NCBI GenBank assembly: GCA_963665325.3
Contig: CAXXWS020000002.1
Span: 448,001 to 512,000 of the forward strand
Direction: 5' to 3'
Source: Alphaproteobacteria bacterium
GTDB taxonomy: Bacteria; Pseudomonadota; Alphaproteobacteria; Bin95
DNA: 64,000 bases
Position 1 is the first letter of the stretch. Every line of letters begins with the position of its first letter. Below the pieces are notes generated by a model. That model had not been told where the DNA came from. It saw only the letters and a list, made by a program, of their open reading frames with translations, and ran no database searches. Both the position numbers and the translations under genes were made by a program. Positions 28,150-62,091 of the stretch are shown here, in pieces.

Positions 28150-28330
28150 CCTGGAGAATGTCGAGAAAATAGGTTGGCACACCTGTGCACCCAGGTGCAA
28201 TTCAAACTATCAACAATTTCAACGACTTATCCGGTCGATGAAATTCGGAAGGCGCGGCACACGGAACCCGGAGGACCAGCCGCCCGGTGGATGTATCCGG
28301 GGAGCACCGATCGCATGCTCCGATCGGCCA
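28150..28330. promoter_or_regulatory. Candidate oriT / relaxase promoter region
   Basis: AT-rich non-coding island between the cassette array and the relaxase genes; short inverted repeats cacctg-N6-caggtg (28180-28197) and ccgatcg...cgatcgg; nic site not identified. Confidence 0.4.
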
Positions 28331-28370
28331 TTCCTGCGCTTGCCTGTTACGTGAACACTGGGCCCTGACG

Positions 28371-29627
28371 ATGGTAGCGAGGATCACCAAACTGACGAAA
28401 CCGGACCTCTATGCCGGACGCAGGGCGCCCTGGACCGGCAAATGGCGCAACCCGTCAGGCCTGCTGCATCTCGCGGACGGCGGCGCCGTTTCCGACAGGG
28501 ACTTCCTTTCCCTGTGGAGGGGGTTCGCGCCCGGAGACGGCTGGCCCCTGTCGCGCCGCGCCCTCAGCCGGACCCACATGCCCGGCTTCGACATCGTGCT
28601 CTCGCCCGACAAGTCGATCTCGGCGCTCTGGGCCATCTCTCCGGAGTTCGACCGCAAGCGCATCGAGCGCACGGTCATGGACGCGGCCGGGATCGCGATC
28701 ACCCGCACGGTCTTCCGGCATTGCGCTGTCACCCGGGCCGGTACGTCCGGCAGGAATTTTCAGGTTGAGACCGGCGACATCCTGGTCGCGATCTTCCCGT
28801 TCCACATCTCCCGCGAACTCGATCCGCAACTGGACGTCAGCTGCGCCATCTTCAATTTGGTGCAGACGCACCGGGACCTGAGGTTCCGGACCCTGCACGC
28901 CTATCCCCTGTATTCCTGGCAGAAGGCCATCGGCGCCACTTTCCGGAGCCGTTTGGCGTATCGGTTGCGCAGCCGCCTCAGCATCGGGATGGAACGGCAT
29001 GGCGAGCAAGGCGAATACACCCGCATCCGGTGCATGGACCCCGGCCTCGAAGAGTTCTGGAGCAAACGGAAATCAAAGTTGTTGGCCAGTCGGGCAAGGA
29101 AGACAATGCCCGACCCGACATCCCTCCACGGCGCCCAATCATCGAGTGCGCCTCTGCGGATCAAACGCACGGCGATCGACGCTGACACGGCCAGGTTCAG
29201 GGATGAAGCAGCCGCATTCGTCGATCCCGATGCCCTGCATACACGGATCGTCCGGTCCGCATCCAATGACGTGACTGAACGCCAGCACGACAGCGTCCGC
29301 CGGGAGATCGACGACATTCCCCGCACGCTCGCCGCGTCGGACCTGGTCTTCAACACGGCCGACATCGTCGCCCGGGTGGAGAACGCCGCCGGCGGCCTGT
29401 TCGACGACGACGCCATGGACGGGTGGCTCGAATTCGCCCTGGCCGCCGACAACCTGCTCCCGCTGGACCATGAAGACCCGAACCCCGACGCCGTCGCCGG
29501 CATGGCCCACAAGCGCCTGTTCACGACCCGTGACATCCTGGACGCCAACCCGGATCACAAGCGGCTTTCCGGCCTCAGAGTTGCGCCTCTACAGCCGGAA
29601 GCACCCACGGAGCCTTCGCGGTGGTAG
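28371..29627 (+). CDS. Degenerate MOBF (TrwC-like) relaxase domain lacking catalytic residues
   Basis: Colinear with the N-terminus of 29621-35974 (PGFDI..S.DKSISALWA), but has no YY pairs and HISRELDPQLDVS in place of H.SR..DPQLHVH. Confidence 0.82.
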   Translation: MVARITKLTKPDLYAGRRAPWTGKWRNPSGLLHLADGGAVSDRDFLSLWRGFAPGDGWPLSRRALSRTHMPGFDIVLSPDKSISALWAISPEFDRKRIERTVMDAAGIAITRTVFRHCAVTRAGTSGRNFQVETGDILVAIFPFHISRELDPQLDVSCAIFNLVQTHRDLRFRTLHAYPLYSWQKAIGATFRSRLAYRLRSRLSIGMERHGEQGEYTRIRCMDPGLEEFWSKRKSKLLASRARKTMPDPTSLHGAQSSSAPLRIKRTAIDADTARFRDEAAAFVDPDALHTRIVRSASNDVTERQHDSVRREIDDIPRTLAASDLVFNTADIVARVENAAGGLFDDDAMDGWLEFALAADNLLPLDHEDPNPDAVAGMAHKRLFTTRDILDANPDHKRLSGLRVAPLQPEAPTEPSRW

Positions 29628-32600
29628 CGACGATCGCCAAGATGGCCGTGCCGTCCTACTACATCGAGAGCCAGGCGGCGCATGAGGGCTACTACACGGG
29701 CGGCGGCAAGGAGCGCCCGGGCGAGTGGTACAACCCGACCGGCCTCTTCCGTCTGAAGGATGGCGGCCTCGTCTGGGAGAAGAAGTTCTACGCCCTCTGT
29801 GGCGGCCGGTCGCCGGAACTCGACGGCACCGACCTCGTGCGCAATGCCGGCTCGGAGAAACGGTCGCCCGGCTTCGACATCACCTTCTCGGCCGACAAGT
29901 CGATATCCGCGCTCTGGGCGGTCTCGCCGAGGGCGGAAGACCGCGAGAAGATCGAGCGCGCCGTGATCGACGCCGCGCGCTGCGCTCTCGACGAGACCGT
30001 GTTCAGGCATTGCGCGACCACGCGTGTCGGCAAGTCAGGCGTGGATCTCCGTATCGAGACCGGCGACATGCTGGCGGCGATCTTCCTCCACCGCACGTCG
30101 CGCGAGGGCGATCCGCAGCTGCACGTGCATTCGACGATCTTCAATGTCGTCAAGACGCACTCTGACGGCAAATACCGCGCCCTGCACGGCTATCCGCTCT
30201 ATTCCTGGAAGAAGGCCGCAGGCGCGGCGTTCCGGGGCCATCTCGCCCACATCATGCAGGAACGCCTCGGCATCGCCATGGAGCGGCACGGGCCCGAGGG
30301 CCAGTACAGCCGCATCCGCGAGATGGACGGCGATCTGGAGCAGTTGTGGAGCAAGCGGCGCGCCCAGCTCGTTGCGACCGTTGCCGAACATCTGGGCGAG
30401 GAAGCGCTCGCCAACCCGGCCCAGATGGCCGCCGCGACGCTTGCAACCCGTTCGCGAAAGCCCGAGGGCGGTCCCTCGACGGAGGAAGACATCGAGCGCT
30501 TCCTGGAGGAGGCCGCTGAACTCGTCGATGTCGCGGAACTCCGGGACCGCATCCGCAATGCCGGGATCGAGGAGCTCACCCACGAGCGCATCGCCGAAAT
30601 CCACGACGAGATCGTCGCGATCCCGGAGAAGCTCGCGCGGATGGAGGCCGTCTTCAATGTCCCGAACATCATGGAGAAGCTCGAGAACGCACTTGCCGGC
30701 GCCGTCGACCGCGAGGCCATGCAGCGCTGGCGCGAGGTTGCGCTCGGGAATGCCGAGCTGGTCTCCCTCGAATATCCGGAGCCCGCCATCGAGGCCCAGG
30801 CCGGCATGGCGCACAAGCAGATCTTCACCACGAAGGAAACGCTCCGCGCCGAGCGCACCCTGCGCCACATCTCCGGCCTCTCGGTTTCGGACCGCACCCA
30901 CGCCGCCGATCCGGACAAGGTCGCGCGGCTCCTCGAGGACCTCGGCAACCGGGGCAAGCGCTTCAGCGCCGAGCAACGCAGGGCCATCCAGTACGCCGCG
31001 GCGGACTCCGGGCGGATCGCCCTCATCGAGGGGGCGGCCGGCGCCGGCAAGTCCCACGTGCTGGGGCCGCTCGCGGACCTCTGGCGCGCCGAAGGCTACA
31101 AGGTGCGCGCACTCGCGGTCGCCTGGTCGGTCGCACGCGAGCTCGCCAGCGACATCGACGCGCCGCCGAGCGCCGTCCATCCCTTCCTGAAGGACGTCCA
31201 CAAGGGCGCCGTCAATGTCGGCCCCGACACCGTCCTGGTCGTGGACGAAGCCGGCATGCTGTCGACGCGCCAGACGCTGCAGCTCGCCAGGCTGAGCGAG
31301 GAGACCGGCTGCAAGCTCCTGCTGGTCGGCGACACGCAGCAGCAGCAGCCGATCGAAGCCGGGCCGGGCATGCGCATCGTCAAACAGCGCGTGAAGGGCG
31401 TGCGCATCGACCGCATCCGCCGACAGCTCCCGACGGTCGAGGACTATCTGCGCGAGATCGTGGGCCTGCCGGCTGAAGAAGCCATTGCGACGGCGGCGCC
31501 GATGACCCGCGAGGAACGCGACGCCGCCAGCAAGCGCTACACCGCCATGCGCCGCGAACGCCGGGCGGCCGGCGAGGAGCCCCTCTCCATCAAGCGCCCC
31601 TGGCAGCTCGGCGTATCGGCGCTGCTGCGCACGGGCGCCATGCACCAGGCGTTCATCGAGATCCACAAGCGCGGCCGCTTCACGCTGGCCGAAGGCAAGG
31701 AAGACGCGCTGCTCCGGCTCGTCGCCCACTGGTCCGCCTGGATGGCGGAGAACCCGGAGGGCGAGGCCGTCGTCATGGCGCGCACCCGCGCCGACGTGCG
31801 CGCGCTGAACGCCCTGCTTCGCGCCCGGCACCACGGCGCGAACGCACCGCCCGACTACAATCCCGCGACGGACTCCGCCGTCATCCGGATCCACCGCTTC
31901 CGCGACCGGGGCAAGGCCGTGGAGGACGATTTAGAGGTCCGCATCGGCGACCGCCTCCGGATCGGTGCCACCGTCTCCCGGCTCGGCCTCTACAACCGCG
32001 ACGCGGTCACCGTCACCGGGCTCGAAAAGCAGCAGGCCGAGGACGGCAGCACGCAGGTCCGCATCACGGCCCGAACGCAGGACAATCGAACGGTCCGCTT
32101 CGAGCCCGGCGACATCCGGAACTGGACCGGCGAGATCGCCATTGACTACGCCTATGCGGCGACCTGCACGACCGCCCAGGGCCTCACCATCGACGCCGGC
32201 TTCCTTTTGCTGGACGAAGGCATGGCGCGCGAGACCACCTATCCGGCCGCCACCCGGCACACGCGCCACCTGCAGGTCGTCGCCGACCGCCTGCCGGTCG
32301 CGATCGCGATCGCCGGCGCCACGCCCGACGGCGAGCCCGGCCATGAGGTCTCCGACGAGGAGATCGTCGCCACGCTCGGCCGGCTCTGCGGGCGCTCGCA
32401 GCCCAAGCAGGCCGCGATCGACTACATCCTGGCCGCAAACCAGGCGGACATGCCGCTCCAGGGCGAGCTCGAGATCGGGCGCGAGCCGGTCCCGGCCGCC
32501 GAAGCCGCCAACGACGCCGTCCAGCCCGGCACGGCCGGCGCCGGGCCGCGCTCTCCGGGCGAGCCTCCCGGCGCGGCCGTGCGCCGGCATGCCGACCGCG

Positions 32601-35600
32601 CCGCCGTCCAGCGCATCCTTGCGGAGGCGAAGCGCCAGATCCCCGAGAACGCCGCCCGGGCCGAGGCCGTGGCGCTCGCCGCCGACATGGAGGAGGTCGA
32701 AGAGGACTGGGCCCGGATCGCGGCCGATCCCGCCCCTTCACCCGACCTCGCGCCGCAGGTGCAGCACGCCCTCGACCGGCATCGCCAGGTCCTGCGTCGC
32801 GTGCGCGTGTTCCTGCGCAACCGCAACCGCACGCGCGGCAAGAGCGACAGCCGGGACCGAACCCGCGTCTCGGACCGGGGGCTCGAGCGGTTCGCGCGGC
32901 TCAGGCGCAACATGCGGGGCCGCTGGCGCGACACCCTCAACGAAGCCAAGGCCGAACGGACCGCAGAGGCGCTCGACCGCGACTGGAAGGAACTCCGGTC
33001 CCGGGTCGGCCCCGATCCGCTCGCATTCCTCGAAGAGCCCGAACATGCGGTCCTCGTCCGCCGCACCGCCGAACTGGCCGGGAGCCGAACCGCCGCCCCC
33101 GCGACGGCTCGCGACTGGCGCGCCTTCCTCGACGAACACTTCACCTCCCTGTCGCTCGAACTCTGGCGGGTCTGGAACGCCGCGCATCCGGGCGCGCCGG
33201 AAAGGAACCGGTCGGCCCGGGATGTCGCTGCCTACCGCACGCTTCTCCGACAGGCCCATACGACCCTGGCGACCTTCCGCTGTCTCACCGGCCGCAACAA
33301 TGCGCTGGAACTCCAGCGCTGGCGCGACTTGCTCGTCCATGCGCCTACCTACCGGGAGGCGCTCGGAAGCCTCGCCCGCTCCCTGGACAATGAAGAAAAG
33401 GACCTCCGGCGCCGGGAGACCAAGCTCGCAGGCTCCACCCTGCCCACGAGGCGGCTGGCCGACCACATGGCGAACCTCGGCGCCGCCGCCCGCCTTCCCA
33501 GCTTCAGGGAGAGCCAGCGCAAGACGATCCGCCGCTTCGTCCGCCAGCACCGCCAGGCGCGCAAGGAGGCTGGCGTCACGCGCACCGACGCGCCCTGGCC
33601 GACCGATGGGCAGATCGAACGCCGGATCGAGACCGGACGCGAACTCCGCGAGGGCTGGCGCCGGGTCCGCGAAGTCACCCGCGACGATCCGCTGGCCGCC
33701 CTCGACTACCTCGAAGCCCGGTTGGTGATCGAGCGCTCCGCCGAACAGGCGCTGGACCCTTCGCTCGACGCCGATACCGCGAGGGAACGCACGGCGTTCC
33801 TTGTCCGGGAGCTGCAACAGCTGGACACGGCGCTGGAGGCGGCCCGGACCGCCGTCCGCGCGCCGACCGCCTCCCCGGGATGGAGCCATGCGGAGTTCGA
33901 GCAATATGCCCGCCTGTGGAACCGCGCCGCCGCGTTCACCCGCACCCTCACGATGCTGCCCGACGGATTCGCCGTTCCGAGCGTCCCCGGAGGCAAATGG
34001 CAGGACTGGCTGAGCGCCACGCCGAACACGCGGGAGGCGTCCGACATGCTGCTGCGGTCCATACGGGCCGAGGAGGCCGCGATCCGCGACCGCGAAACCG
34101 TCCTGCCCGGTTACACCCTGCTGACCCGGCGCCTCCACGACCACATGGAAACCCTCGAGGCGCTCACCGGACCCGGCGAAGACACGGCCTTGAGGAGCGA
34201 CGGCGAGCGTCGCGAGCTCCGGAACCTGCTGGAGTCCTGGGTCGAGGCGCGCGAGGCCGCCGGCGTCACCCGCACGGACGTCCGATGGCTCTCCGACAGC
34301 GAAGCCGATCAGGCCGCCGCAAGGAGGGCCGAGGGACGCGCCCTCAACAAGGCATGGCGGGACTTCAGAACCGGCGATCGTCCGGTCCATCCGGCTCTGC
34401 TCGACCAGCCGGACCACGGCAGTCTCATCGCCCGCACGGCCGCATTCGCCCTGGATCTGGAGGACAGACGCCCCGAAACCGGACGGAAATGGCGCGAGCT
34501 TCTCGAGATGCACCTCCAGCAGCTTGCCCGCCAACTGAACGACGCATTCGAGAGCATAGCCGGAAGCAGCGACCGTAGCGCCCGCAATGTCGAGCAGTTC
34601 AACCGGTATTTCCGGCTGCCCCGGCGCGTCGACGCCCTCGCGGACATGCTTGCGGCGGTGCCTCCGGCCATGACGCAGCCGGTCGATTTCGACCTGCAGG
34701 ACTGGAAGCGCCGCCTCGCTGAGGCGCCCTCAGGCGACGATGTCTATGAACGGCTTGTCGAGGACCTCTTCGAGGAAGAGCGTATCGTCACGGAGCGGGA
34801 GGACGGCCTTCCCGGTTCGACCCTTCCGACCCGCCGCCTTGGCGAACATATGGCCGTGCTCGAGGCGCTGATCTCGAGCGACGTGGTGGGCTCCGGGGAC
34901 AAGGAGTATTTCCGGGGCCTCCTGGACGCCCATCGGCAGGCCCGGGCGGACGCGGGCGTCACGGTTGCAGACCTGCCATGGCCCGACACGCCCGAACTCC
35001 AGGTCGAGCATGACTATCGACGCATTCGCAACGCCGTCGAACGGGCCGCCGGCCGAGCCAGCGACAGCGCGCTCATCAACGAGCCCGGCATCGAGGCTCT
35101 CGGGCCCGAAGCAGCACGCCTGCTCGCAACGCCCTGGCTTTCCGCCGACGGCCGCCGCTACCTCGATAAATTCCAGGACCTGATCGACACGGAAATCCGG
35201 CAGCGCAACGATGTTTCCGGAACCATCGAAAGGGCCCGCGCCCATCTCCAGGAATACCCTGCAATTCTCGACCGCGCGCTTGCCCCCAAACCGCCTGAGC
35301 CCACCCCGGACGACCAGGACACCCGCCCGGGCCTTTTCGGCCGCGTCCGCCGGCTTCTCGGCGCCGAGGACGACATTCCCGCCCGCCCCGCGGATCCGGC
35401 CCCGGCGCCGCAGGCGCTCAACGATTTCGATCCGGACTACCGCAAGTGGGATGTCCTGGCTGAGCAACTCGTCAAGAGGTTCCGGCATTGGCGCTCGGCA
35501 GCCCAGCTCGCCCGCCGCGATTTCGTCGAGCGCCGATGGATCGACATGGCCGATCTCATCGCCGAGTTCGAAGCGATCCGCAGCGCCGCTCGCGACCCGA

Positions 35601-35974
35601 AGGCCGAACCCTATCGGATCGAAACCCCGGATGCCGGCGCCTTCGCGGCCGCAGACCAGCGCCACGATCCCGACCGCCTCGCGACCCTGCTGCGCGACGT
35701 CATCGGGCCCGAAGACGAGCGCAGCAGCGAAGCCGTGCTCGAACTCGCCCGCAGGAACCGCGCCTGGCCCGACGAGACCCTCGCCGTCTTTCGCCGGCAT
35801 GCCAGGCAGGCAGCCGCCGCCGGCGAAACCCGTTCCCTGTCGCGGCTCGCGGCCGGCCTGCCCAGAAACCTCACCCGGAGCCTCACGAACCTGTCGGAGG
35901 TGACCTGGCAACATCAGGGCGAGGACATAGACCGCCGGCGAGAGCGTGAGCAGGGATACGACCGCTCAATGTGA
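29621..35974 (+). CDS. MOBF relaxase-helicase (TrwC/TraI-like) with a long C-terminal extension
   Basis: SYY...GYY tyrosines, DKS.S and HRTSREGDPQLHVH HUH motif; RecD-like GAAGAGKS, VDEAGM, LVGD..Q and YAYA.T...AQG.T motifs. Confidence 0.95.
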   Translation: MVATIAKMAVPSYYIESQAAHEGYYTGGGKERPGEWYNPTGLFRLKDGGLVWEKKFYALCGGRSPELDGTDLVRNAGSEKRSPGFDITFSADKSISALWAVSPRAEDREKIERAVIDAARCALDETVFRHCATTRVGKSGVDLRIETGDMLAAIFLHRTSREGDPQLHVHSTIFNVVKTHSDGKYRALHGYPLYSWKKAAGAAFRGHLAHIMQERLGIAMERHGPEGQYSRIREMDGDLEQLWSKRRAQLVATVAEHLGEEALANPAQMAAATLATRSRKPEGGPSTEEDIERFLEEAAELVDVAELRDRIRNAGIEELTHERIAEIHDEIVAIPEKLARMEAVFNVPNIMEKLENALAGAVDREAMQRWREVALGNAELVSLEYPEPAIEAQAGMAHKQIFTTKETLRAERTLRHISGLSVSDRTHAADPDKVARLLEDLGNRGKRFSAEQRRAIQYAAADSGRIALIEGAAGAGKSHVLGPLADLWRAEGYKVRALAVAWSVARELASDIDAPPSAVHPFLKDVHKGAVNVGPDTVLVVDEAGMLSTRQTLQLARLSEETGCKLLLVGDTQQQQPIEAGPGMRIVKQRVKGVRIDRIRRQLPTVEDYLREIVGLPAEEAIATAAPMTREERDAASKRYTAMRRERRAAGEEPLSIKRPWQLGVSALLRTGAMHQAFIEIHKRGRFTLAEGKEDALLRLVAHWSAWMAENPEGEAVVMARTRADVRALNALLRARHHGANAPPDYNPATDSAVIRIHRFRDRGKAVEDDLEVRIGDRLRIGATVSRLGLYNRDAVTVTGLEKQQAEDGSTQVRITARTQDNRTVRFEPGDIRNWTGEIAIDYAYAATCTTAQGLTIDAGFLLLDEGMARETTYPAATRHTRHLQVVADRLPVAIAIAGATPDGEPGHEVSDEEIVATLGRLCGRSQPKQAAIDYILAANQADMPLQGELEIGREPVPAAEAANDAVQPGTAGAGPRSPGEPPGAAVRRHADRAAVQRILAEAKRQIPENAARAEAVALAADMEEVEEDWARIAADPAPSPDLAPQVQHALDRHRQVLRRVRVFLRNRNRTRGKSDSRDRTRVSDRGLERFARLRRNMRGRWRDTLNEAKAERTAEALDRDWKELRSRVGPDPLAFLEEPEHAVLVRRTAELAGSRTAAPATARDWRAFLDEHFTSLSLELWRVWNAAHPGAPERNRSARDVAAYRTLLRQAHTTLATFRCLTGRNNALELQRWRDLLVHAPTYREALGSLARSLDNEEKDLRRRETKLAGSTLPTRRLADHMANLGAAARLPSFRESQRKTIRRFVRQHRQARKEAGVTRTDAPWPTDGQIERRIETGRELREGWRRVREVTRDDPLAALDYLEARLVIERSAEQALDPSLDADTARERTAFLVRELQQLDTALEAARTAVRAPTASPGWSHAEFEQYARLWNRAAAFTRTLTMLPDGFAVPSVPGGKWQDWLSATPNTREASDMLLRSIRAEEAAIRDRETVLPGYTLLTRRLHDHMETLEALTGPGEDTALRSDGERRELRNLLESWVEAREAAGVTRTDVRWLSDSEADQAAARRAEGRALNKAWRDFRTGDRPVHPALLDQPDHGSLIARTAAFALDLEDRRPETGRKWRELLEMHLQQLARQLNDAFESIAGSSDRSARNVEQFNRYFRLPRRVDALADMLAAVPPAMTQPVDFDLQDWKRRLAEAPSGDDVYERLVEDLFEEERIVTEREDGLPGSTLPTRRLGEHMAVLEALISSDVVGSGDKEYFRGLLDAHRQARADAGVTVADLPWPDTPELQVEHDYRRIRNAVERAAGRASDSALINEPGIEALGPEAARLLATPWLSADGRRYLDKFQDLIDTEIRQRNDVSGTIERARAHLQEYPAILDRALAPKPPEPTPDDQDTRPGLFGRVRRLLGAEDDIPARPADPAPAPQALNDFDPDYRKWDVLAEQLVKRFRHWRSAAQLARRDFVERRWIDMADLIAEFEAIRSAARDPKAEPYRIETPDAGAFAAADQRHDPDRLATLLRDVIGPEDERSSEAVLELARRNRAWPDETLAVFRRHARQAAAAGETRSLSRLAAGLPRNLTRSLTNLSEVTWQHQGEDIDRRREREQGYDRSM

Positions 35975-36427
35975 TCGCGTCGGCCCGGCCGGAGGTGCGC
36001 CCCCGGACCCGCTTCCTCTTCTCCCATTGCGATGTGCCAGGTCGTCGACCGTATAGCGATCGAACACTGCGAAGAAGGCTTCCTCCGCTTCCGTGAGAAT
36101 GGACCGGTAGCGGCAGCATGAGGCGGTCCGGCACGCGCCGGCCCCGTCGGGAAAGCACTCGGCGAGCGGTATGGAACTCTCGACATGACGCACTATCGCG
36201 CCAAGCGAAATTGTCCCTGGCGGACGAGCCAGCCTGACCCCGCCGTTCTTTCCGCGAACCGTCTCCACGTGCCCGGCCCGTCCCAGCTGCCAGACGACCC
36301 TGGTCAGGTGGCTTCGGGAAATCCCGCAGCACTCCGCGATCTCGCGGATGGTGGAGAGGCGCTCTTCGTATACGGCGAGATACACGAGCGCCCGCAGGGC
36401 ATAGGCGGTATGCTTGCTCAGCCGCAT
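35966..36427 (-). CDS. Rrf2-family regulator, NsrR-like
   Basis: T.YALRALVYLA, IREIA...IS..HL..VV, RGKNGG and three C-terminal Fe-S Cys (ECF...C...C). Confidence 0.88.
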   Translation of the reverse strand: MRLSKHTAYALRALVYLAVYEERLSTIREIAECCGISRSHLTRVVWQLGRAGHVETVRGKNGGVRLARPPGTISLGAIVRHVESSIPLAECFPDGAGACRTASCCRYRSILTEAEEAFFAVFDRYTVDDLAHRNGRRGSGSGGAPPAGPTRSH

Positions 36428-36812
36428 TGCCTGCCTCCGGCGTGGCCCGACGAGGGCATGGACTCACGGCACCATCCTCCTCAGCTTGAGCGCAAGCGCA
36501 TTCATGGTCCAGCGCCGAATGCTGGCCCCGATCGGCGGATCGACTTTCCTTCGCGGTCTGTGCCAGGCTGCTGCTGCGCGGTGCTGAACCTCCAATGGGC
36601 GCCGCGTAGCGCCCTGGCGGAGGTCAACGACAATGCTCCGGGCGCCGCCAGGGCGCTCCTCATGAAAGCCGGGTGACGACACCCCGATCGGGAGGAGTCT
36701 TCCAGCCGCCCGATCCCCGGAAACTGGAGGCGCATCCAGGCCTGTGTCAAACTGCGATCCCGTGCCGGAGCGGCGCGGTTCGACCGTTATCGACCAGTAT
36801 GGGAACGCCGCC

Positions 36813-39800
36813 ATGTCCGATTACGACAGTTCCGATGGAATAGCTGCCGGCACGGCCGATATCATCGACAATCTGACGCCCGGCGCCGGTCCCGGCTTCC
36901 GCGAGCATGACGGGCGCGAGGCCGGCGATGTCGAGATGGCCCGCACCGGCGTCGACCTGCTGTTCGCCTCGATCGGCTCGGGGCTTTGCCCCGACGGCTC
37001 CGTCCTTGCCGACGACCGCGACCGCCTGCTCTGGAACGCCGTCGAGCAGCTGCGCAGCCATGTCGGGCGCCTGGAAGCGCGGCTGGAGAGCCGTCTTCGG
37101 GAACCGACAGAGGAGCAGCGCGAACAGCGCGCCGGCGACAACGAGGCCGACGGCGGAGAGACCGACGTCCTGCTTGCGCAGGGGGCCGAGAACACGCAGC
37201 TGCAGCGCGACATCCTTCGCCGGACCCTCGACCATGCGCTGAACCGCTATGGCGAGGTCGTGGGGCGTCCGTGGCTCGCGCGCCATGGCACGGTGAATAC
37301 CGGCGCGTCGGAACACGGGCTCGGCAACCAGGTCGACGCTTCGGCATGGTTCGCCGCGCGGGAGCTCCGGGAACCCGCTCCCAATATCGTGACCCATGTC
37401 CGCGAGGCCATGGAATATGCGGACAGGAAGCGCGCCGCGCTCCGCGATGCAGCCGGGGAGCAGGAGCTTCTGCCCCGTCTCGAGGACCTGACCTTTCCCT
37501 TCGACGCCGGCGGCCGCGAAGAGACGGCGGCTTCCGTCGCCGGCATGTTCCAGGCGCTGGAGCTGATCTTTCCCGACGGGACCCAGCTCCAGGACGAGCG
37601 CCGCGCTGGCGCCTGGCGCACGGTGCGCATGTTCGACGCCGGCGCCATCAGGGCCGCGGAGGACGCGCTCCGGCGCATGACGGACCATCCCGCGCTCGGG
37701 CCCGACCCGGCCCCGGAGGCCGCGGCCCTCTTCGACGAAGGCACCCGGGAGTCGATGCTGCGCGTCCAGCAGCTCTCCAGGGCGGCCGATGCGGCCGGCG
37801 CCCTCTATTGCGAGACCACAGGCGAGGAAGAGTGGAAACGCCGCGACCCCTCCATGACGGCGGCCGGAGGTCCCCGCGACCGGACGTCCCTTACCGGCCG
37901 GCACTACGCGGCCGCCGGGCGCGCCGTCGCTCTCGGACATCCCGCGCCGCATCAGCTCGACGGGCCGAACGTCGTCATCGTCGGCAGTCCCGATCTCGAC
38001 ATGGTCCGGGACCGCGAGACCGTGGAAAGGCGGCTCTCGCAGCTGCATCGGCAATATCCGCAAATGGTGCTGCATTACGGCGCCCGGCTGCGCGACGCCG
38101 GAGGCGTGGACCGCCTCAAGGGCATCGACGCCATCGTCCACCGCTGGGCCACCGGCCGGGGTGTGCCGCTTGTTCCCAACCCGCCTGTCTGGGACGCGGA
38201 GAACAAGCGCTTCAACCTCCATGCCCGCGACGACGCCTGGATCGCGACGAACCCCGACCTGGTCGTCGATTTCGGCGGCACCGGCAATGCCCACATGCGC
38301 TTTCTTGCGCTGGCCCGGGAGAAGGGCCTCGGATCTCCCGGCCAGCATGCCGGTCCGCGCAGCTACGAGACCGGCAAGGCCTGCGTCTTCCGGAGCACGC
38401 GCGGCGAGTGGGGCATATTCAACAACTCCGCGCGCCTGCCCGAACCGATCTCCGCTGCGGACCGCGCCTTCGCGACGTCGGAACATCTCTACCAGGCAGC
38501 CAGGTTCCGCCGATCGCCCGAAGTCCAGGCCCGGATCGCCGGCGCGCGCTCCGCAGTAGACGCCGCGAAAATCGGCAGTGACGAGACCAACGGGCCCGAT
38601 GCCGACTGGAACCGCCGCCGCGTCGACGCCATGCGCTGGGTCATCCGCATGAAGCGCGAGGCCCATCCCGGGCTTGTCGATGCCGCCCTCCAGAAGACCG
38701 GCGACCGGGAGATCGTCGGATCCTCGGACGAAGACCGGTTCTGGGGGGCGCGGCCGGAGGACGGCAGGCTGGTCGGCCAGAACACTCTCGGGCGCCTCTG
38801 GATGGAGCTGCGCCAGCAGCTCCGGGAGGGCGATCCGCTGTTCCGCGCGTCGGCCTGGACGAATCCCCTGACGCCCGACCCCCGCTCCGCCGGCGCCGTC
38901 GCACACACTTCCGAAGCGATCGTCACGGAAGAACAAGCCGGGACATCCCGGTCCGATGGCGAGGCCCGCATCCTTCGCTGGGCCGGCATCGGCTCCCGTG
39001 ACACGCCCGCCGACGTCCTGAACGACATGACCAGCCTGGCTCGCCGTATGGCGGACTCAGGTTGGCACCTTTTCTCTGGGGGCGCCAAGGGCGCTGACAC
39101 GGCATTTGCAGCCGGCACTCCGGCCGACCAGCGAACCATATGGCTTCCCAAGCCGGGTTTCGAAGGCCTCCGTGGACCCGACTGCCGCGTTCTTTCTCCG
39201 GATCGCGCGCAGGAATGCATGGCGATCGCCGAGCGACTTCACCCCGCCTGGGACCGGTGCGACGACTTCGCTCGCAAAGCCCATACCCGCAACGTCGCCG
39301 TTCTCCTCGGGCCGAACCTGGACACTCCCGTCGATGCCGTCGTCTGCTGGACCGAGGACGGAAAGATCAAGGGCGGTACCGGCATGGGCCTCCTGATCGC
39401 CCGGGAGGCGAATATCCCCGTCATCAACCTCGCGACAGAATCCGCAGGGTCCGCATGGGAACGGCTCCGGCAGCTGCAGCACCGGCCGCCTGCCGCACGG
39501 ACTGCGACCGCCACGACATCCGCGACCGCAACCAGGTCGCGGGGTCCCGATCCCGACCAGCGCCGGGAGTTCCGGCAGCAACGGCTCCAGGCCAGCTTGC
39601 GCGGGATGCTGCACGGCCTGCCCCTCAAGCGCCTGGACCGTCCGGTCCTGGCCGAACTCCACCGTGAGAGGGCCCGCACCGCCGCCGAGGAGCGCCTCGA
39701 CAGCCTGTCCCGCGACCAGCTGCACGACGCCCTCGAGAGCATCGAGGAGCAGGCCGGGCAGCTGCGCGCCGAATTGGGCGCCGGCGGCCGCTCCGGCCCC

Positions 39801-42107
39801 CATGCGGCCGAGACGGGCAAGCAGATCGCCGCGCTGGACGCCGCCGGCGACCGCATCCACGCGGTGCTGGCCGAAAAGAACTTGGCGGCGCTTCGCGAAC
39901 AGGAAGGCCTGGACACCGAAATCGCGGCGGACGCCCAGGAGCGCGTCATGTCCGTCATGCTGTCCGTCTGGAAGCTCGCCTCGGAAGGCCCGCTCGCCAT
40001 GGAGCCCAATCTCCTTCTCGGCGCGGCCGCCGGCATCTTCATTGGCGAGGCCGGCAAGGTCGGCGTGGACCTTGCCGACCGGACGCGCATCCGCTCCGGG
40101 CATGCGCTGGCGCATACGCCGGGCTCCGAGGAGGAGACGCTCGCGCTGGCAAGCCGCGGCCCCGGCCAGGATCCCAAGAAGTCCGGCGAGGCCTTCGAGC
40201 ACATGCTGACCGACGTCGAAACCAAGGAACGCGACGAGCAGTACAAGGCCCTTGCGCATCGCAGTCGCCTGCTCGACGTCATGGCCGAGACCGCTCAGAC
40301 CTTCGCCCAGGCGAGCCGCGTGGACATGCGCCGGCAGGCCGCCGCCCGCGAACGGCGCCTGACCGGGCACCTCGAGGGCGTGGCGTCCGGACCGGCCGTC
40401 CAGCGCCGCCAGGACGAGCTTCGCGCCGCCCATGGCGAGCTCATCGACAACATGTTCGGAAACCTGGCCGCCCTCTGCCCCGTGGACCATGTCTCCGCGG
40501 CCGATCCGCATCACGGCTCGTCCTCGGACCGCGACCGGCTCCTGGCCCGCTTCGCGTCCCTCTTCCGGGAGGTCGATCGCAAGATCGGGAAGCAGATCGA
40601 CCGCATCTCGGGCACCGGCAAGGACCCACGCAATACCGGCAGGCTCCGCGAAGCCGGCGCCTGGCTACGCGAGCTCGCCGGCCATGCGGAACAGGCCATC
40701 GGCAAGCATACCGGCCGCGCTCCGCTCCTCTGGAACCGGCGGGAAACGCAGACCGCCGGGGAATGGCTGATGGCACGCCAGCGCCGCGCACTTCAACTCG
40801 AGAAGGCCGAGGCGCTCGCACCCGACGGCCGCCATGTCGCCATCGTCGGAGGGCGCGACCTACACAGCCGCCATGCCGGCCGCATCGCGGAGCTGCTCAA
40901 CCGCGAGCGCGCCGCCAATTCCGGCGAGCCGCTGGTCCTGCACTGCATCGCCCGGGACGGCGCCGGGCGCTACGCCGCCGAATGGGCCGCCTCGCACGGC
41001 GTCACCTGCGTCACCCACCGCCCGCACCGCTACTCGCCGGCGCATCTCAGGCGCCGCGACGACCTGGTTCTCGGCATCCCGCCCGACACCGTCTGGAACT
41101 TCGGCGCCGAAGGCGGCCATGAACGGGCCGCAAGCATGCTTCTCGACCGCGCGAGGGAGCAGGGCGACGGCATCGATATCCGCGACATGGCCTCCGAACT
41201 GGAAGGCCCGCTCTCCGGGGATATCGTCATCGAGCCGCGCGAGCAGGTGGAACGGGACTATGCCCGCATCCATTACGCCTGGCAGAAGGCGGAGGCGCTC
41301 GCCGGCGACGGGCCGCTGATCTACCGGGAGGGCGTAGAGGAGCTCCTGCCCGATATCGCCCGCACTCTTGCCAGCCCGCATCTCGCCGGCAAGGAACGGC
41401 GTTTCCTCGACGCGTTCAAGGGCTCGATCGAGAGCGAGGTCCGGGTGCGCGACGAGATCTCCCGCGCCATCGACCGCGCCCGGGACCATCTCGCGTCCTA
41501 CGGGGCGCTGCTGGAGCGGCGCGGACCGCACCAGGCCGGCACGGTGCTCAACGACGTCGATACCGACTACCGCAAGTGGGATGTCCGGGCCGAGCTGATG
41601 GTCCAGACCTTCGACAACTGGTTCGGCACCGGCAACACGGCCCACCGCGAGCACCTGGACCGCCGGCGCCTCGACCTCACCGACCTCGGCGCCGAGCTCC
41701 GCGCCATCCGCAAGGCCGCCCGCGATCCGGAGGCCGAGCCCCACCGGGTCGAGGTCTCTGTCGAGATCGGGGTCCATTCCTGGGACCAGCTCTTCGAACG
41801 CAGGCGTTTCACCGAACTCACCCTGGAGACCCTCAAGCCCGAGGACGAGCGCAGCCCGGAAACCGTCGCCGAGTTCGCCCGCTGGTCCCGGGCCTGGCCG
41901 AAGGAAACCCAGGCGACCTTCAAGACGATCGCGACCGAGGCGGCGCGCGAGAAGGAGCAGCTTCACACCAAACGCCTCGCCGCCGGCCTCCCGCCCGGCC
42001 TCGCCGCCGGCATGCTCCACATCAGCGAGGAAATCTGGTCCTACCAGGGCGAGGAGATCATGAGGCGGCAGGCCGAGCGCAGCCGAGGCATGGGAATGTC
42101 AGCATGA
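36813..42107 (+). CDS. Polyvalent protein: DUF2493-type SLOG modules, NADAR, a further SLOG domain and a relaxase-like C-terminal domain
   Basis: SLOG ~37960-38330 (MVLHYG..KGID); NADAR ~38360-38830 (TSEHLYQA, D.FWG, GQN.LGRLWMELR); SLOG ~38970-39480 (AGIGSR.TP, SGGAKGAD, GGTG); SLOG ~40825-41190. Confidence 0.85.
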   Translation: MSDYDSSDGIAAGTADIIDNLTPGAGPGFREHDGREAGDVEMARTGVDLLFASIGSGLCPDGSVLADDRDRLLWNAVEQLRSHVGRLEARLESRLREPTEEQREQRAGDNEADGGETDVLLAQGAENTQLQRDILRRTLDHALNRYGEVVGRPWLARHGTVNTGASEHGLGNQVDASAWFAARELREPAPNIVTHVREAMEYADRKRAALRDAAGEQELLPRLEDLTFPFDAGGREETAASVAGMFQALELIFPDGTQLQDERRAGAWRTVRMFDAGAIRAAEDALRRMTDHPALGPDPAPEAAALFDEGTRESMLRVQQLSRAADAAGALYCETTGEEEWKRRDPSMTAAGGPRDRTSLTGRHYAAAGRAVALGHPAPHQLDGPNVVIVGSPDLDMVRDRETVERRLSQLHRQYPQMVLHYGARLRDAGGVDRLKGIDAIVHRWATGRGVPLVPNPPVWDAENKRFNLHARDDAWIATNPDLVVDFGGTGNAHMRFLALAREKGLGSPGQHAGPRSYETGKACVFRSTRGEWGIFNNSARLPEPISAADRAFATSEHLYQAARFRRSPEVQARIAGARSAVDAAKIGSDETNGPDADWNRRRVDAMRWVIRMKREAHPGLVDAALQKTGDREIVGSSDEDRFWGARPEDGRLVGQNTLGRLWMELRQQLREGDPLFRASAWTNPLTPDPRSAGAVAHTSEAIVTEEQAGTSRSDGEARILRWAGIGSRDTPADVLNDMTSLARRMADSGWHLFSGGAKGADTAFAAGTPADQRTIWLPKPGFEGLRGPDCRVLSPDRAQECMAIAERLHPAWDRCDDFARKAHTRNVAVLLGPNLDTPVDAVVCWTEDGKIKGGTGMGLLIAREANIPVINLATESAGSAWERLRQLQHRPPAARTATATTSATATRSRGPDPDQRREFRQQRLQASLRGMLHGLPLKRLDRPVLAELHRERARTAAEERLDSLSRDQLHDALESIEEQAGQLRAELGAGGRSGPHAAETGKQIAALDAAGDRIHAVLAEKNLAALREQEGLDTEIAADAQERVMSVMLSVWKLASEGPLAMEPNLLLGAAAGIFIGEAGKVGVDLADRTRIRSGHALAHTPGSEEETLALASRGPGQDPKKSGEAFEHMLTDVETKERDEQYKALAHRSRLLDVMAETAQTFAQASRVDMRRQAAARERRLTGHLEGVASGPAVQRRQDELRAAHGELIDNMFGNLAALCPVDHVSAADPHHGSSSDRDRLLARFASLFREVDRKIGKQIDRISGTGKDPRNTGRLREAGAWLRELAGHAEQAIGKHTGRAPLLWNRRETQTAGEWLMARQRRALQLEKAEALAPDGRHVAIVGGRDLHSRHAGRIAELLNRERAANSGEPLVLHCIARDGAGRYAAEWAASHGVTCVTHRPHRYSPAHLRRRDDLVLGIPPDTVWNFGAEGGHERAASMLLDRAREQGDGIDIRDMASELEGPLSGDIVIEPREQVERDYARIHYAWQKAEALAGDGPLIYREGVEELLPDIARTLASPHLAGKERRFLDAFKGSIESEVRVRDEISRAIDRARDHLASYGALLERRGPHQAGTVLNDVDTDYRKWDVRAELMVQTFDNWFGTGNTAHREHLDRRRLDLTDLGAELRAIRKAARDPEAEPHRVEVSVEIGVHSWDQLFERRRFTELTLETLKPEDERSPETVAEFARWSRAWPKETQATFKTIATEAAREKEQLHTKRLAAGLPPGLAAGMLHISEEIWSYQGEEIMRRQAERSRGMGMSA

Positions 42108-42427
42108 GCGCCGGCGATGCCTCCGGCGGGTCCGGTTCCTATCGAACCCTCGCCGACCGCTTCACGGAGCGCTACGAAGCCGACGATTCATGGTGGAGCA
42201 AGGTCGAGGAACGCTGGCGCGAGGACGACGAGGAAAACCGTATCCTGCTGGCACCCGTCTCGCGCACCGTCGACTATGGCGACATGGAAGGCTCCGACCA
42301 CCTCACCGTTACCTGGAAGGACGCCTCGGCCATCATCGTCACCTTCCTCGGAACCGAAGACGAGAACTGGGACTTCATCGACGATCACGGCCGGGTCCGG
42401 GGGGTCCGGCTCGACACCGGCCGGTAG
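42104..42427 (+). CDS. Small acidic protein coupled to the polyvalent gene
   Basis: ATGA overlap; 107 aa rich in D, E and W. Confidence 0.68.
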   Translation: MSAGDASGGSGSYRTLADRFTERYEADDSWWSKVEERWREDDEENRILLAPVSRTVDYGDMEGSDHLTVTWKDASAIIVTFLGTEDENWDFIDDHGRVRGVRLDTGR

Positions 42428-44135: not shown

Positions 44136-44182
44136 TACTCTGCTAGCCACGACCGTGACTTTCGAACTTGAGAGGCAAACTC

Positions 44183-46228: not shown

Positions 46229-46255
46229 GGATACTCGTCCGGCCGGGCTGGAGTG

Positions 46256-52445: not shown

Positions 52446-54488
52446 TCACTCTGCCGCTGCCGGCATGGACGCCGCCGGGCCGAGGCGCTTGCGTATCTTC
52501 CCGATTTCCTGCGCAAGGTCCCGGTCGAACCGGTCCAGTTCCGACATGGCCTCCCGCCGGCGCAGCAGTCCGGCTGCTTTGAGCTTCCGCTCCACATAGG
52601 GATTGGGATCGGCATCGCCTCGCAGCGCGGCATGCTCCCAGTAGCGGGTGATGGCGAGCCGCATGGCGTCCCTCGGGAGCTCCTTGGAGGCGGCGATCAC
52701 ATACTGCTCGTCCGGTTTCATCATCACCAGGTCCTCGGGGCGCACGATGCGCTCCTTGACGAGGTTGCGGCTGTCGCCGGTGGTGACCTTGTTGGCGGCG
52801 AGCAGGACCGAGCGGCCCATGGGCGTGCCGGAGGAGGTCTGGGTGTAGCCCTCGAAGGTGGCGTGGCCGATGGCCTTGGAGACTTCCTCCGCGCCGGCGG
52901 CGTCCGCGCGCGACCAGCCGAGGATCTGGACGACTTCGGAGAGGTCGATCATCTCCTGGCGGCGCTGCTTGCCCCAGCTGCCGTCGATCCCGGAGAGCGC
53001 CTGGGCGAAGGCCCAGAAATGGACGCCGCGCCCGGCGCCCGTCCTCCAGGCGTCCATGACGGGTTCGAGGTAGCCGACGGCCGGCATCTCGTCCATGACG
53101 ACCAGCATGTCCTTCTTCAGAGACCGGCGGGCGGCGACGGCGAACGGGATCGCGATCCAGAGCCTGAGCCAGGGGCGCGCCGCCTTGAGGACCTCCTCCG
53201 GCACCACGACGAAGATGTCCATGTTGCCTTCGGCCAGGTCGTGCGGATCGAATGTGCTGGCCGCCGTCTGCGCCTGGATCTTCGGATGCGCCAGGAACTG
53301 CATCTGGTTGGCGATCGTGGTGTAGTTCGAACCGCTCTCCTGCTTGCCGATGGCCTGCTCGGACTCCATGGCGCGGTGCGCGAGCCCGCCGGCGAACATG
53401 TCGCCCTCGAGGATCTGCGCCATCAGTGCGCTGCGCCTGTCGGGACCGGCCGAGAGGTTGTCGAACACGTGGGCCAGGTTCCGCTTCTCCTTCTCCGCCC
53501 CATAGGCCGCCCAGGCGATATGGCCGGAGATCAGGCGCTTGGCGCTCTCGTGGAAATGGCGGCTGTTGCCGCCGTCGTTCGCGGGCGGCGTGAGCAGGCC
53601 CTGGACGAGCACATCGACATCCTGGACGGCCTTCTCCTCGCCGCGCAGGAAATCGAGCGGGTTGTAGGTGTGCTTCTTCGCGAAGCGCGGCAGGTGGCAA
53701 TGGGGATGCTGTTCGCGGTGGCGGTCGATAACGCCATAGGGGTCGAGCAGGATGACCTCGCGGCCGAGCTCGCGCCGGCGGCGGGCGACGATCGGATAGA
53801 GCTCGCCGCGCGGGTCGATGGTGACGGTCGAGCCCTGCCAGCCGCGCCCGTGGGGGGCCAGCATGTTGGCGGCGATGAGCGCGCCCTTGCCGGTGCGGGG
53901 CGGGGCGATGGTGACGGCATGGCCCTCGAGCGGCCAGACGGCGAGCGGGGCGCGGCTGCCGGGCCCGGTCTGGCCGAGCAGGATGCCGTCCTGGCGCCGC
54001 GCGAGCTTCCGGAGATGGCGCGCGCCCATGAGCTTCGAGGCGCCGTGGAGCTCGGACTTCGACCGCCTGCGCCTGGCGATCCGCCCGGCGCCGGTGAGCG
54101 CGGTCAGCAGCGCTACCAGCCAGAGGAACCCGAGCAGGGGCGCGATGAGCAGCGGCGCCGCCAGCCGGAACGCGTCGATCGCCGCGCTGCCCTTGGCCAG
54201 CGCCAGGACCCCGCCGAACTCGCCGGCGAGCAGGAACGGCGCCGTGTCGATCGCGATCGACATGGCGGCGATGGCGGCCGTCGGTCCCCAGACGCCGATC
54301 TTCCAGCCGAGGCCGCCGCGCTTGAGCTCGGTGAACAGCAGCACGGCGAGCGAGGCCGCGGCCATGCCGGCAAGCGCCCAGCCCCGCAGCTCCGGATCGG
54401 GCCGTTCGGTCCAGAGCCACCAGACGAGGCCGGCGCCCGGAATGCCGGTCGCCAGCGCCAGGCCCAGATGGGTTGCAAATCCGCCCAT
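52446..54488 (-). CDS. virD4: Type IV coupling protein, VirD4/TraG family
   Basis: N-terminal TM helices, HGA motif, APPRTGKG Walker A, DPRGEL, YNPLD and VMDEM Walker B. Confidence 0.9.
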   Translation of the reverse strand: MGGFATHLGLALATGIPGAGLVWWLWTERPDPELRGWALAGMAAASLAVLLFTELKRGGLGWKIGVWGPTAAIAAMSIAIDTAPFLLAGEFGGVLALAKGSAAIDAFRLAAPLLIAPLLGFLWLVALLTALTGAGRIARRRRSKSELHGASKLMGARHLRKLARRQDGILLGQTGPGSRAPLAVWPLEGHAVTIAPPRTGKGALIAANMLAPHGRGWQGSTVTIDPRGELYPIVARRRRELGREVILLDPYGVIDRHREQHPHCHLPRFAKKHTYNPLDFLRGEEKAVQDVDVLVQGLLTPPANDGGNSRHFHESAKRLISGHIAWAAYGAEKEKRNLAHVFDNLSAGPDRRSALMAQILEGDMFAGGLAHRAMESEQAIGKQESGSNYTTIANQMQFLAHPKIQAQTAASTFDPHDLAEGNMDIFVVVPEEVLKAARPWLRLWIAIPFAVAARRSLKKDMLVVMDEMPAVGYLEPVMDAWRTGAGRGVHFWAFAQALSGIDGSWGKQRRQEMIDLSEVVQILGWSRADAAGAEEVSKAIGHATFEGYTQTSSGTPMGRSVLLAANKVTTGDSRNLVKERIVRPEDLVMMKPDEQYVIAASKELPRDAMRLAITRYWEHAALRGDADPNPYVERKLKAAGLLRRREAMSELDRFDRDLAQEIGKIRKRLGPAASMPAAAE

Positions 54489-54634
54489 GGCGTTCCTTCC
54501 TTCGGAGCTTGTCTGCATTTCCGGTCATGCGGTTGTTCCGGGGGCCGACCCCGACCCGACCCGTCAATCCGGGGCGGCCGAAGCCGCCCCGATCTCCTTT
54601 ATTTTCTTCATCGTGCTGCTCCAGTCGGCGATCT

Positions 54635-56956: not shown

Positions 56957-56962
56957 GGCGGA

Positions 56963-62056: not shown

Positions 62057-62091
62057 CTCCAACCTCCTTCTTCCGGTTGAAATCCGCCGTC

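Follow-up and report, generated by a model that had tools for sequence, protein, structure and literature searches.

For several substrates of type IV secretion systems (T4SSs), the recognition module is described as lying at the C-terminus. According to the account in PMC10025392, BID domains are found on Bartonella effectors as well as on conjugative relaxases, the signals of effectors mostly lie at the C-terminus, and the XVIPCD is a C-terminal domain that binds VirD4. It has also been proposed that conjugative elements send their polyvalent proteins along with the DNA (PMC5512222); this idea has rarely been put in a testable form for such large counter-defence proteins, and the question is how they are chosen for export. 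Here, a domain is described that forms the C-terminus of both the relaxase and a polyvalent protein of an integrative conjugative element from an uncultured alphaproteobacterium. The element lies in a stretch of 64,000 nucleotides, referred to below as the window (GenBank assembly GCA_963665325.3, contig CAXXWS020000002.1, positions 448,001 to 512,000 of the forward strand). The region that they share represents a new domain family of narrow distribution and follows a known logic, namely the reuse of a relaxase-type C-terminal module on non-relaxase cargo. On a finely balanced judgement, it may be a docking or translocation module for the coupling protein (T4CP) of the element, or for the relaxosome docked on this T4CP.

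The resemblance to the BID domain concerns the overall plan: in both cases, a helical C-terminal module is found on relaxases and on non-relaxase proteins, which for BID is a T4SS/T4CP signal (PMC10025392), both occur in Alphaproteobacteria, and the module is always C-terminal. The two differ in that the domain studied here, of about 290 amino acids (aa), has no sequence match to BID (E <=0.01), in that no BID entry is among the Foldseek and VIA fold matches listed, and in that its tail is near neutral, whereas the BID tail is positively charged. The conjugation machine is also different, being type IVB here and VirB/VirD4 for BID, and the cargo, a polyvalent protein, is directed at bacteria and is not a host-cell effector. 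The XVIPCD is likewise a conserved C-terminal domain on several substrates of one T4SS; it binds the coupling protein, and transfer depends on it (PMC10025392, PMC8740702). Going by its description only, it differs in length (about 120 aa), in its Gln-rich tail, and in serving a bacteria-killing VirB-type system, and it is not reported on relaxases.

The polyvalent proteins of Iyer, Burroughs, Anand, de Souza, and Aravind (2017) are, like the protein of the window, very large and composed of many domains, nucleotide- or NAD-related, encoded beside DNA-transfer genes, and proposed to enter with the DNA; in the passages of PMC5512222 considered here, no relaxase-shared targeting module is named, and a candidate for such a module is identified here. 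In the F-plasmid TraD/TraM system, the coupling protein has a short and variable C-terminal tail that gives specificity for the cognate relaxosome, and substrates need the docking of the relaxosome on the T4CP (PMC8406263). The TSA and TSB signals of F TraI are internal, whereas the candidate signal here is a terminal helical domain, and the contact considered here between T4CP tail and domain, when compared with that of F TraD and TraM, draws on one co-variation event and a weak complex prediction. Among type IVB systems, IncI1 conjugation exports the Sog primase, a large plasmid protein, to recipients. The transfer machine here is of the same broad class (MPF_I), whereas the relaxase here is MOBF; we know of no relaxase-type shared module on Sog.

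Results

Homology of the relaxase and polyvalent C-termini

The window, with ~70% G+C, contains two long open reading frames (ORFs) on the same strand, at 29621-35974 and 36744-42107, and the T4CP gene and type IVB transfer genes lie within 22 kb (Table 1). The first ORF encodes a MOBF relaxase in which an SF1B helicase domain follows the relaxase domain, with Pfam matches to TrwC (PF08751, aa 12-282, E 1.5e-57, 195.9 bits against a cut-off of 25), AAA_30 (aa 448-603, E 6.3e-38), and TraI_hel_assoc_N (32.5 bits against a cut-off of 27), and an NCBIfam match to MobF (NF041492, 175 bits against a cut-off of 100). The second ORF, which begins 770 bp downstream of the first, encodes a polyvalent protein, having several effector-type domains and belonging to a conjugative element in which it stands beside the transfer genes.

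A single strong BLASTP match connects the two proteins, between aa 1791-2116 of the relaxase and aa 1498-1786 of the polyvalent protein (numbered from GTG 36744), with 210 bits, E 4e-58, and 132/327 identical positions (40%). Almost all of the 39 gap positions come from one Pro/Arg-rich linker, which is present in the relaxase only. In window coordinates, the aligned domains are 34991-35971 and 41235-42104, in close agreement with the end-to-end alignment (~35000-35974 and ~41240-42107) reported in the initial annotation of this DNA, and the sequence blocks listed there (LND.D.DYRKWDV, AIR.AARDP.AEP, PEDERS, RAWP.ET, RLAAGLP, and SE..W..QGE) are seen in the pairwise alignment. It had also been stated there that the two proteins have nothing else in common, and this is the case, because all further local BLASTP matches between the rest of the relaxase and the rest of the polyvalent protein have E values of at least 2. 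The polyvalent protein most likely starts at ATG 36813, because all 10 orthologues begin with MS[DE] at that position (10/10), and with this start the length of 1764 aa that was first reported is right. Its end had been placed too far downstream, at 42427: the stop codon is at 42107, and what extends from 41576 to 42427 is merely a different, overlapping ORF that is read in another frame.

Old duplication, co-divergence, and a fixed C-terminal tail

Elements were defined by hidden Markov model searches of the loci around domain matches, and individual elements are referred to below as E1, E2, and so on. In 11 elements, a relaxase copy and a polyvalent copy of the domain lie 6-13 kb apart on the same strand. 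One element, E3, is decayed, with a polyvalent gene that is interrupted by a TAG and has its pieces in different frames, and with no T4CP nearby. Four more relaxases, of ~1570 aa, bear the domain without a polyvalent partner. In a maximum-likelihood tree of 25 rows, from which the two pieces of the E3 polyvalent copy and the truncated E10 copy had been dropped, the relaxase copies (15) and the polyvalent copies (9) separate with 100/100 support, and the branching order of one clade is repeated in the other. Such mirrored branching indicates one old duplication followed by co-divergence of the copies, with no recent gene conversion.

The shared region is a discrete domain under purifying selection. 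The Nei-Gojobori ratio of nonsynonymous to synonymous substitutions (dN/dS) is below 1 in 11/11 close pairs (range 0.14-0.86): polyvalent copies give 0.14-0.33, relaxase copies that have a polyvalent partner 0.28-0.66, and the solitary relaxase type 0.57 and 0.86. Across 23 sequences, 20 columns of the domain are invariant and 32 are nearly invariant. All of the 24 complete C-termini stop exactly one residue past the penultimate position, which is Ser in 23/24, and the tail reads G/D-x-G/D-x-S-[MYLH] in the 15 relaxases and G-x-G-[ML]-[SG]-A in the 9 polyvalent proteins.

A third copy of the domain, a fragment of the relaxase type, is present in the genome of the window, G000 (G000:C1:1231705-1232412, minus strand). 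It has an in-frame TAG, lies in a 392-aa frame without a Pfam family, and appears to be what is left of a different element.

Distribution of the domain

A profile built from both copies of the domain was run against 1,835,955,588 representative proteins and gives 22 matches at E <=1e-3, 14 of them at E <=1e-30. A Pfam scan of 20 of these 22 matches (the other two being 58-aa fragments) finds four TrwC/AAA_30 relaxases or pieces of them, three YAcAr proteins (one with NADAR), and 13 short proteins without a Pfam family. The matches that reach the end of the profile all finish <=9 residues from the end of the protein. The matches are thus restricted, as had been envisaged in the initial annotation for relaxases and polyvalent proteins, to relaxases, YAcAr polyvalent proteins from this family of elements, and short fragments that cannot be assigned, all with the domain at the C-terminus.

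In genomes, the domain is confined to one uncultured alphaproteobacterial genus. Among 101 genomes including that of the window, it is found in 9/16 other genomes of the same genus, in 0/20 genomes of two other genera of the family, and in 0/64 genomes of other families, and named relatives are metagenome-assembled records of "Alphaproteobacteria bacterium". A tblastn search of the PLSDB plasmids with the polyvalent copy gives no match, PHROGs and PADLOC searches find nothing for the shared domain, and a literature search, limited to certain terms and one paper collection, turned up no publication that describes it.

The domain on a distant relaxase lineage

The solitary relaxase type occurs in two genomes, G009 (complete, one contig) and G006 (98% complete). 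The identity between the G009 relaxase and that of the window is 30% in the TrwC/helicase part (186/625) and 59% in the shared domain (188/317), and the G009 protein has no match to the repeat region of the window relaxase. The difference between the identity of the enzyme part and that of the domain implies that, besides reaching the polyvalent protein, the domain has passed between two MOBF lineages that are only distantly related. This is in agreement with the logic put forward in the initial annotation, that of an effector borrowing a C-terminal module of the relaxase, which also fits the tree and the conserved free C-terminus. Neither the G009 nor the G006 genome has a match to the T4CP query of the window or to DotA/TraY, and there are no T4SS genes within 20 kb of the G009 relaxase, where instead IS66 transposases, a NikA-like protein, an SSB, an S24 peptidase, and integrases are encoded. 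The G009-type locus looks like a mobilizable element whose relaxase would bear the label of the machine of another element.

In the window relaxase, the three repeats that precede the domain are detected by self-BLASTP (30% identity over 571 columns, E 6e-37); in a three-copy alignment, they are about 33% identical, and motifs including TRRL..HM and AGVT..D..W are invariant. It was considered that the shared domain might be a fourth repeat, as the BLAST alignment of the repeats extended into its first ~90 aa, but this was rejected, the profile-profile comparison of repeats and domain giving a probability of 0.5%, which is no relation.

The translation of the relaxase matches, with ...LHRTSREGDPQLHVHS..., what we take to be the histidine-triad metal-site motif, and the TrwC-only paralogue encoded upstream reads ...HISRELDPQLDVSC... 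at the same place. The metal site of the paralogue looks lost, because LDVSC is found there where the relaxase has LHVHS. The paralogue gene overlaps the start of the relaxase gene, and the protein ends where the first ~410 aa of the relaxase end. Copies of the paralogue with 68-69% identity are found upstream of the relaxase in three other loci (L026, L027, and L028). An arrangement of this kind is also seen in the second type IVB element of the genome.

The secretion system and its coupling protein

The DotA_TraY match in the window (TIGR04346) has 240.4 bits against a cut-off of 100, and the TraQ and TraO/DotG matches are under their cut-offs. Just beyond the window, in the downstream locus L046, Pfam matches are found to DotI/IcmL (twice), to a T2SSE DotB-like ATPase, and to T4SS_TraI, TcpQ, and DotD. 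Judged by this gene content, the T4SS of the element is type IVB (MPF_I, IncI-like). The system is not VirB-like, unlike that of the BID domains with which the initial annotation drew a comparison.

Orthologues of the T4CP, with 77-97% identity, are encoded 4-15 kb from domain pairs in six other places. Their core (aa 150-645) has 82-98% identity among orthologues, and the last ~45 aa occur in two forms, type B in E5, E11, and a copy in genome G007, and type A in E1, E2, E4, the diverged E6, and the remnant in E7. The switch in tail type is one change, on a well-supported subclade (E8, E9, E5, and E11) that is present in both domain trees. The tail type tracks this domain subclade and not the similarity of the T4CP core, for which the identity to the window protein is 94% in E5 and E11, 89% in E4, and 82% in E6.

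Fold of the domain and predicted complex with the T4CP

The AlphaFold2 (AF2) model of the domain, calculated from the 23-sequence alignment, is all-helical, with 12 helices arranged in two subdomains (predicted local distance difference test score, pLDDT, 88.8; predicted template-modelling score, pTM, 0.83). A Foldseek search of this model against the Protein Data Bank (PDB) finds nothing at E <=1e-3 (best E 0.079, TM 0.22), and the best PDB sequence match of the domain profile has E 0.76. In the wide fold search with VIA, the best Z of 8.3 is to generic three-helix bundles, which is not meaningful for helical bundles, and the second subdomain (aa ~189-287) is barely covered. When the two proteins are scanned with Pfam over their whole length at E <=0.01, the BID family does not appear. 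The comparison with BID that was made in the initial annotation thus has no sequence match behind it, and neither BID nor TraI is among the fold matches listed, in which the second subdomain is barely covered.

The complex of the domain with residues 150-690 of the T4CP was predicted in three runs, together with controls. The score is 0.52 (0.52, 0.00, and 0.53 in the individual runs), and the best control reaches 0.01. The mark used for these predictions is reached by 58/80 solved complexes and 2/110 mismatched pairs; scores that are at the mark and <=0.60 belong to only 7/80 solved complexes and to both of the passing mismatches. The agreement of contacts between runs is at least 0%, and the pLDDT of the partner is at least 79. 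The prediction weakly suggests docking of the domain on the T4CP.

The polyvalent protein and its payload

The polyvalent protein has orthologues over its whole length in seven other elements, with 37-73% mean identity per 100-aa block. Its order of parts is a helical N-terminal region, YAcAr, NADAR, DprA-like, a long helical stretch, a second YAcAr, and the shared domain. The N-terminal region has a mean column identity of 75% in 10 orthologues, and its AF2 model is helical (pLDDT 60); no usable atlas match and no Foldseek match at E <=1e-3 is found for these 382 aa. The DprA-like domain matches phrog_768, a "DprA-like DNA recombination-mediator protein" (E 1.2e-53), and its Pfam match to DNA_processg_A is weak. 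The constant payload consists of three SLOG-type domains, including the DprA-like one, and these DprA-like and YAcAr domains suggest the handling of incoming single-stranded DNA (ssDNA) or of nucleotide signals, at least as much as the removal of ADP-ribose.

The NADAR domain (PF08719, 71.5 bits against a cut-off of 35.1; phmmer match to YbiA, PDB entry 2B3W, E 3.8e-14) is an optional cassette. It is found by Pfam in 4/10 other polyvalent ORFs that were scanned, and the alignment occupancy falls to 0.58 at this place. The NADAR of the window has a Gly (IVGSS) where 2B3W and the P. nicotianae enzyme (PDB entry 8BAU) have a Glu; at this position (Glu125 in the P. nicotianae numbering, Asp171 in E. 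coli C7), Glu is found in E9 and E11, Asp in E10, and Gly in E2, so the caveat of the initial annotation, in which the Gly was set against the Glu of relatives, is correct. At the Arg79 position, Ser occurs in the window protein only, the other four orthologues having Arg; at the Lys50 position, Arg occurs in all five NADARs, and the equivalent of Glu43 is kept (TSEH). As reported in PMC11543638, Glu125 coordinates the distal ribose, D171 of E. coli C7 is needed for efficient hydrolysis and DarT1 rescue, and K95R is active in vitro yet fails in the in vivo rescue. The removal of DarT1-type ADP-ribose, which had been proposed for this protein, is doubtful for the window copy because the catalytic Glu is a Gly, and in addition Arg79 is replaced by Ser and Lys50 by Arg.

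A second module and C-terminal tails in the same genome

The genome of the window has 24 TrwC matches in 5.58 Mb and contains a second type IVB element on contig 1, at about 2.03-2.09 Mb. Three adjacent proteins encoded there (G000:C1:2072706-2085658), a DUF4326/DprA-like protein, a 559-aa protein, and a YAcAr protein, have in common a different C-terminal module of ~360 aa, with 35-41% identity, and a fourth protein with this module is encoded on contig 3 (G000:C3:611956-615066). It invariably forms the extreme C-terminus, with ...SMSA or ...AMSA as its last residues. The database relatives of these proteins combine NADAR, DUF4326, and Macro domains. A relation between the studied domain and the ~360-aa module (P0064) was considered and rejected as too weak (hhalign 4.8%, E 0.008, ~107 columns).

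Many relaxases of the genome end in GGG[MI]SMS, GGGISA, QGRSM, or GMSIL, and another group ends in DLGL or DLGM. Among 3796 ORFs of at least 100 aa, filtered by GC3, the pattern MS[AMI]L? ends 6/3796, all six being conjugation proteins, and the pattern [MILR]S[MA]S? ends 19/3796, including 6 relaxases and 5 polyvalent-type proteins, against an expectation from composition of about 0.003 per ORF; both patterns were chosen post hoc. As a starting point for hypotheses only, these endings suggest a short common C-terminal tail on many candidate substrates in this genome.

Other features of the locus

The coordinates of the main features are given in Table 1. The Rrf2-family gene overlaps the stop of the relaxase gene on the opposite strand, and a homologue with 71-86% identity is found at the equivalent place in 3/13 loci searched (L022, L025, and L031).

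Table 1. Features of the conjugative element, in window coordinates.
Feature	Positions	Strand	Evidence
Short TrwC-only paralogue just upstream of relaxase	28287..29627	+	Pfam TrwC E 3.7e-35
MOBF relaxase-helicase, 2117 aa from GTG 29621	29621..35974	+	Pfam, NCBIfam
Three tandem repeats of ~225 aa in relaxase (aa ~1114-1795), immediately before shared domain	32960..35005	+	Self-BLASTP
Shared C-terminal domain, relaxase copy, 327 aa including ~40-aa Pro/Arg-rich linker; ends ...QGYDRSM-stop	34991..35974	+	
Rrf2-family regulator between relaxase and polyvalent genes	35966..36427	-	Pfam Rrf2 E 7e-37
Polyvalent protein, 1764 aa from ATG 36813 (1787 aa from GTG 36744)	36813..42107	+	
Conserved helical N-terminal region of polyvalent protein	36813..37958	+	Orthologue alignment, AF2
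YAcAr (SLOG) domain 1	37968..38195	+	Pfam PF10686 E 1.1e-17, two stretches, best aa 409-484
NADAR domain, optional cassette, Gly at catalytic Glu position	38400..38837	+	Pfam; PHROG 1017 aa 553-698
DprA-like SLOG/Rossmann domain	38976..39488	+	phrog_768 E 1.2e-53, aa 745-915
YAcAr (SLOG) domain 2, limits approximate	40797..41138	+	Second Pfam YAcAr stretch; phrog_289 aa 1352-1465; equivalent position in orthologues
Shared C-terminal domain, polyvalent copy, 290 aa, without linker; ends ...RGMGMSA-stop	41235..42107	+	
VirD4/TraG-type coupling protein (T4CP), 690 aa; variable tail is last ~45 aa (about 52449-52583)	52446..54518	-	Pfam T4SS-DNA_transf E 1.6e-39
Start of type IVB (MPF_I) transfer genes: DotA/TraY, TraQ-like, TraO/DotG-like; run past window	54635..63976	-	

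On the left side of the window, an ORF at 5763-6473 (plus strand) matches only positions 2-108 of a 348-position isocitrate/isopropylmalate dehydrogenase profile; it may be a gene that was truncated by the insertion of the element and marks its left boundary. It is followed by genes for a DnaA_N-domain protein, by ParA/ParB-like genes, and by a large serine recombinase (15133-16824). Upstream of the relaxase and on the same strand, two DUF7146+Toprim proteins and an SSB are encoded (17374-18447, 23683-24102, and 25478-26776, plus strand), which may plausibly serve in the establishment of the element. Between the polyvalent gene and the T4CP gene, the stretch ~43400-51800 has 60-63% G+C, compared with about 70%, and contains two resolvases, a PIN protein, a DNA methylase-HNH fusion, and an integrase-like gene in which only an Arm-DNA-binding match is found; it looks like a secondary insertion.

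Discussion

In the best-supported reading, which stands at about even odds, the all-helical domain of ~290-330 aa, located at the extreme C-terminus and ending in G-x-G/D-x-S-X-COOH, would be a substrate address label. The label would belong to integrative conjugative elements of the type IVB class (IncI-like, MPF_I) that form one family within a single alphaproteobacterial genus, and through it a carrier protein would be docked on the VirD4/TraG-type T4CP, possibly via the variable C-terminal tail of the T4CP, or on the relaxosome that is bound to the T4CP. There would be three such carriers, the MOBF relaxase of ~2100-2250 aa, the distant MOBF relaxase of ~1570 aa (in whose genomes no T4CP or DotA is found), and the polyvalent protein. 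The latter may be recruited in the same way as the relaxase and enter the recipient with the T-strand, where incoming ssDNA, or defences based on nucleotides or ADP-ribose, would be the target of the DprA-like and YAcAr SLOG domains and, in some elements, of the NADAR.

Several observations weigh against this proposal. The mapped signals of MOBF/F-type relaxases (TrwC and TraI) are described as internal and not C-terminal (PMC10025392). The searches by sequence and by fold have no BID, TraI, XVIPCD, or other secretion-signal entry among the matches listed. The last 30 residues of the domain have 3-7 Lys/Arg against 1-7 Asp/Glu in 23 sequences (4 against 5 and 5 against 7 in the window copies); the tail is near neutral and not positively charged, unlike the Arg-rich VirB/D4 signals. 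The T4CP core does not co-diverge with the domain, the cores of E11 and E5 being 94% identical to that of the window and their domains ~56% or less. The switch in T4CP tail type is a single evolutionary event, and as the 3' end of the T4CP gene faces the relaxase module, physical linkage could explain the association of the tail with the domain subclade. In the complex prediction, 1/3 runs gives 0.00 and no contacts are common to the runs. The second type IVB element has its shared module on three polyvalent-like proteins, and a search of its relaxase for this module finds none; the sharing of a module with the relaxase is therefore not a general rule.

The domain could also work on the donor side, as a relaxosome module that binds oriT DNA, an accessory protein, or itself, like the C-terminal region of F TraI, and the polyvalent protein would then be an accessory factor of DNA processing that stays in the donor. 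This is unlikely, although there is some substance to it: the domain is mainly found on relaxases (15 copies in the tree against 9 polyvalent copies), the polyvalent gene is a conserved backbone gene beside the relaxase gene and encodes a DprA-like domain for ssDNA handling, and a generic helical bundle is a fold that often mediates protein-protein contacts. A strict free C-terminus with a fixed tail (24/24) is, however, commoner in secretion signals than in oligomerisation domains; the domain also occurs on a relaxase from a different lineage, in whose genomes no T4SS is found, and this fits a label for a foreign transfer machine; and the T4CP complex prediction did pass its controls, if weakly. 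A relaxosome role would, moreover, be compatible with piggy-back export of the polyvalent protein.

That the domain acts only after transfer, with both proteins binding one target of the host or the element in the recipient (such as SSB, RecA, the replisome, or the T-strand end) and being exported by other signals, is considered improbable. Such a role leaves unexplained both the fixed stop one residue past the penultimate Ser and the link between T4CP tail type and domain subclade, and the searches with the domain brought up no host-factor motif and no match in sequence or fold to known binders of SSB, RecA, or the clamp, even though both proteins plausibly meet incoming ssDNA (the relaxase itself, and the polyvalent protein with its DprA-like and YAcAr domains), the element encodes its own SSB and two Toprim proteins nearby, and the known signals of MOBF relaxases are given as internal (PMC10025392). 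The similarity might finally be a functionless leftover of duplication or gene conversion between neighbouring genes, as these lie 770 bp apart on the same strand in a genome that is rich in duplicated conjugation genes (24 TrwC matches). Given the two mirrored clades over 11 elements, the dN/dS below 1 in 11/11 pairs, the 20 invariant and 32 nearly invariant columns in 23 sequences, and the confidently predicted fold (pLDDT 88.8), this is extremely improbable; also, in E3, the sole decayed element, the polyvalent gene is broken and no T4CP is found nearby.

If the domain is a docking or translocation module, the polyvalent-protein hypothesis gains a concrete targeting element, the candidate module being portable, conserved, C-terminal, and common to the relaxase. 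Natural controls are available in the two relaxase lineages with the domain, the elements with and without the NADAR cassette, the two T4CP tail types, and the decayed element. The confinement to one uncultured genus narrows the reach of the finding and makes experiments harder. If confirmed, the module would join BID as the second case in nature in which a relaxase-type module has been reused to deliver proteins, here by a type IVB system and between bacteria.

It can be envisaged, as a tentative and rather doubtful extension, that an "address label" system exists in this genus, in which interchangeable C-terminal helical modules ending in ...G-x-S-X-COOH, namely the domain described here and the unrelated ~360-aa module found on three or four other polyvalent-like proteins of a sister element, would set export by type IVB systems, with the variable tail of the T4CP as the reader. 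The label would be carried, or pirated, by relaxases, polyvalent counter-defence proteins, and mobilizable relaxases without a T4SS of their own. If such a system is true, the substrate repertoires of conjugative T4SSs could become predictable from sequence.

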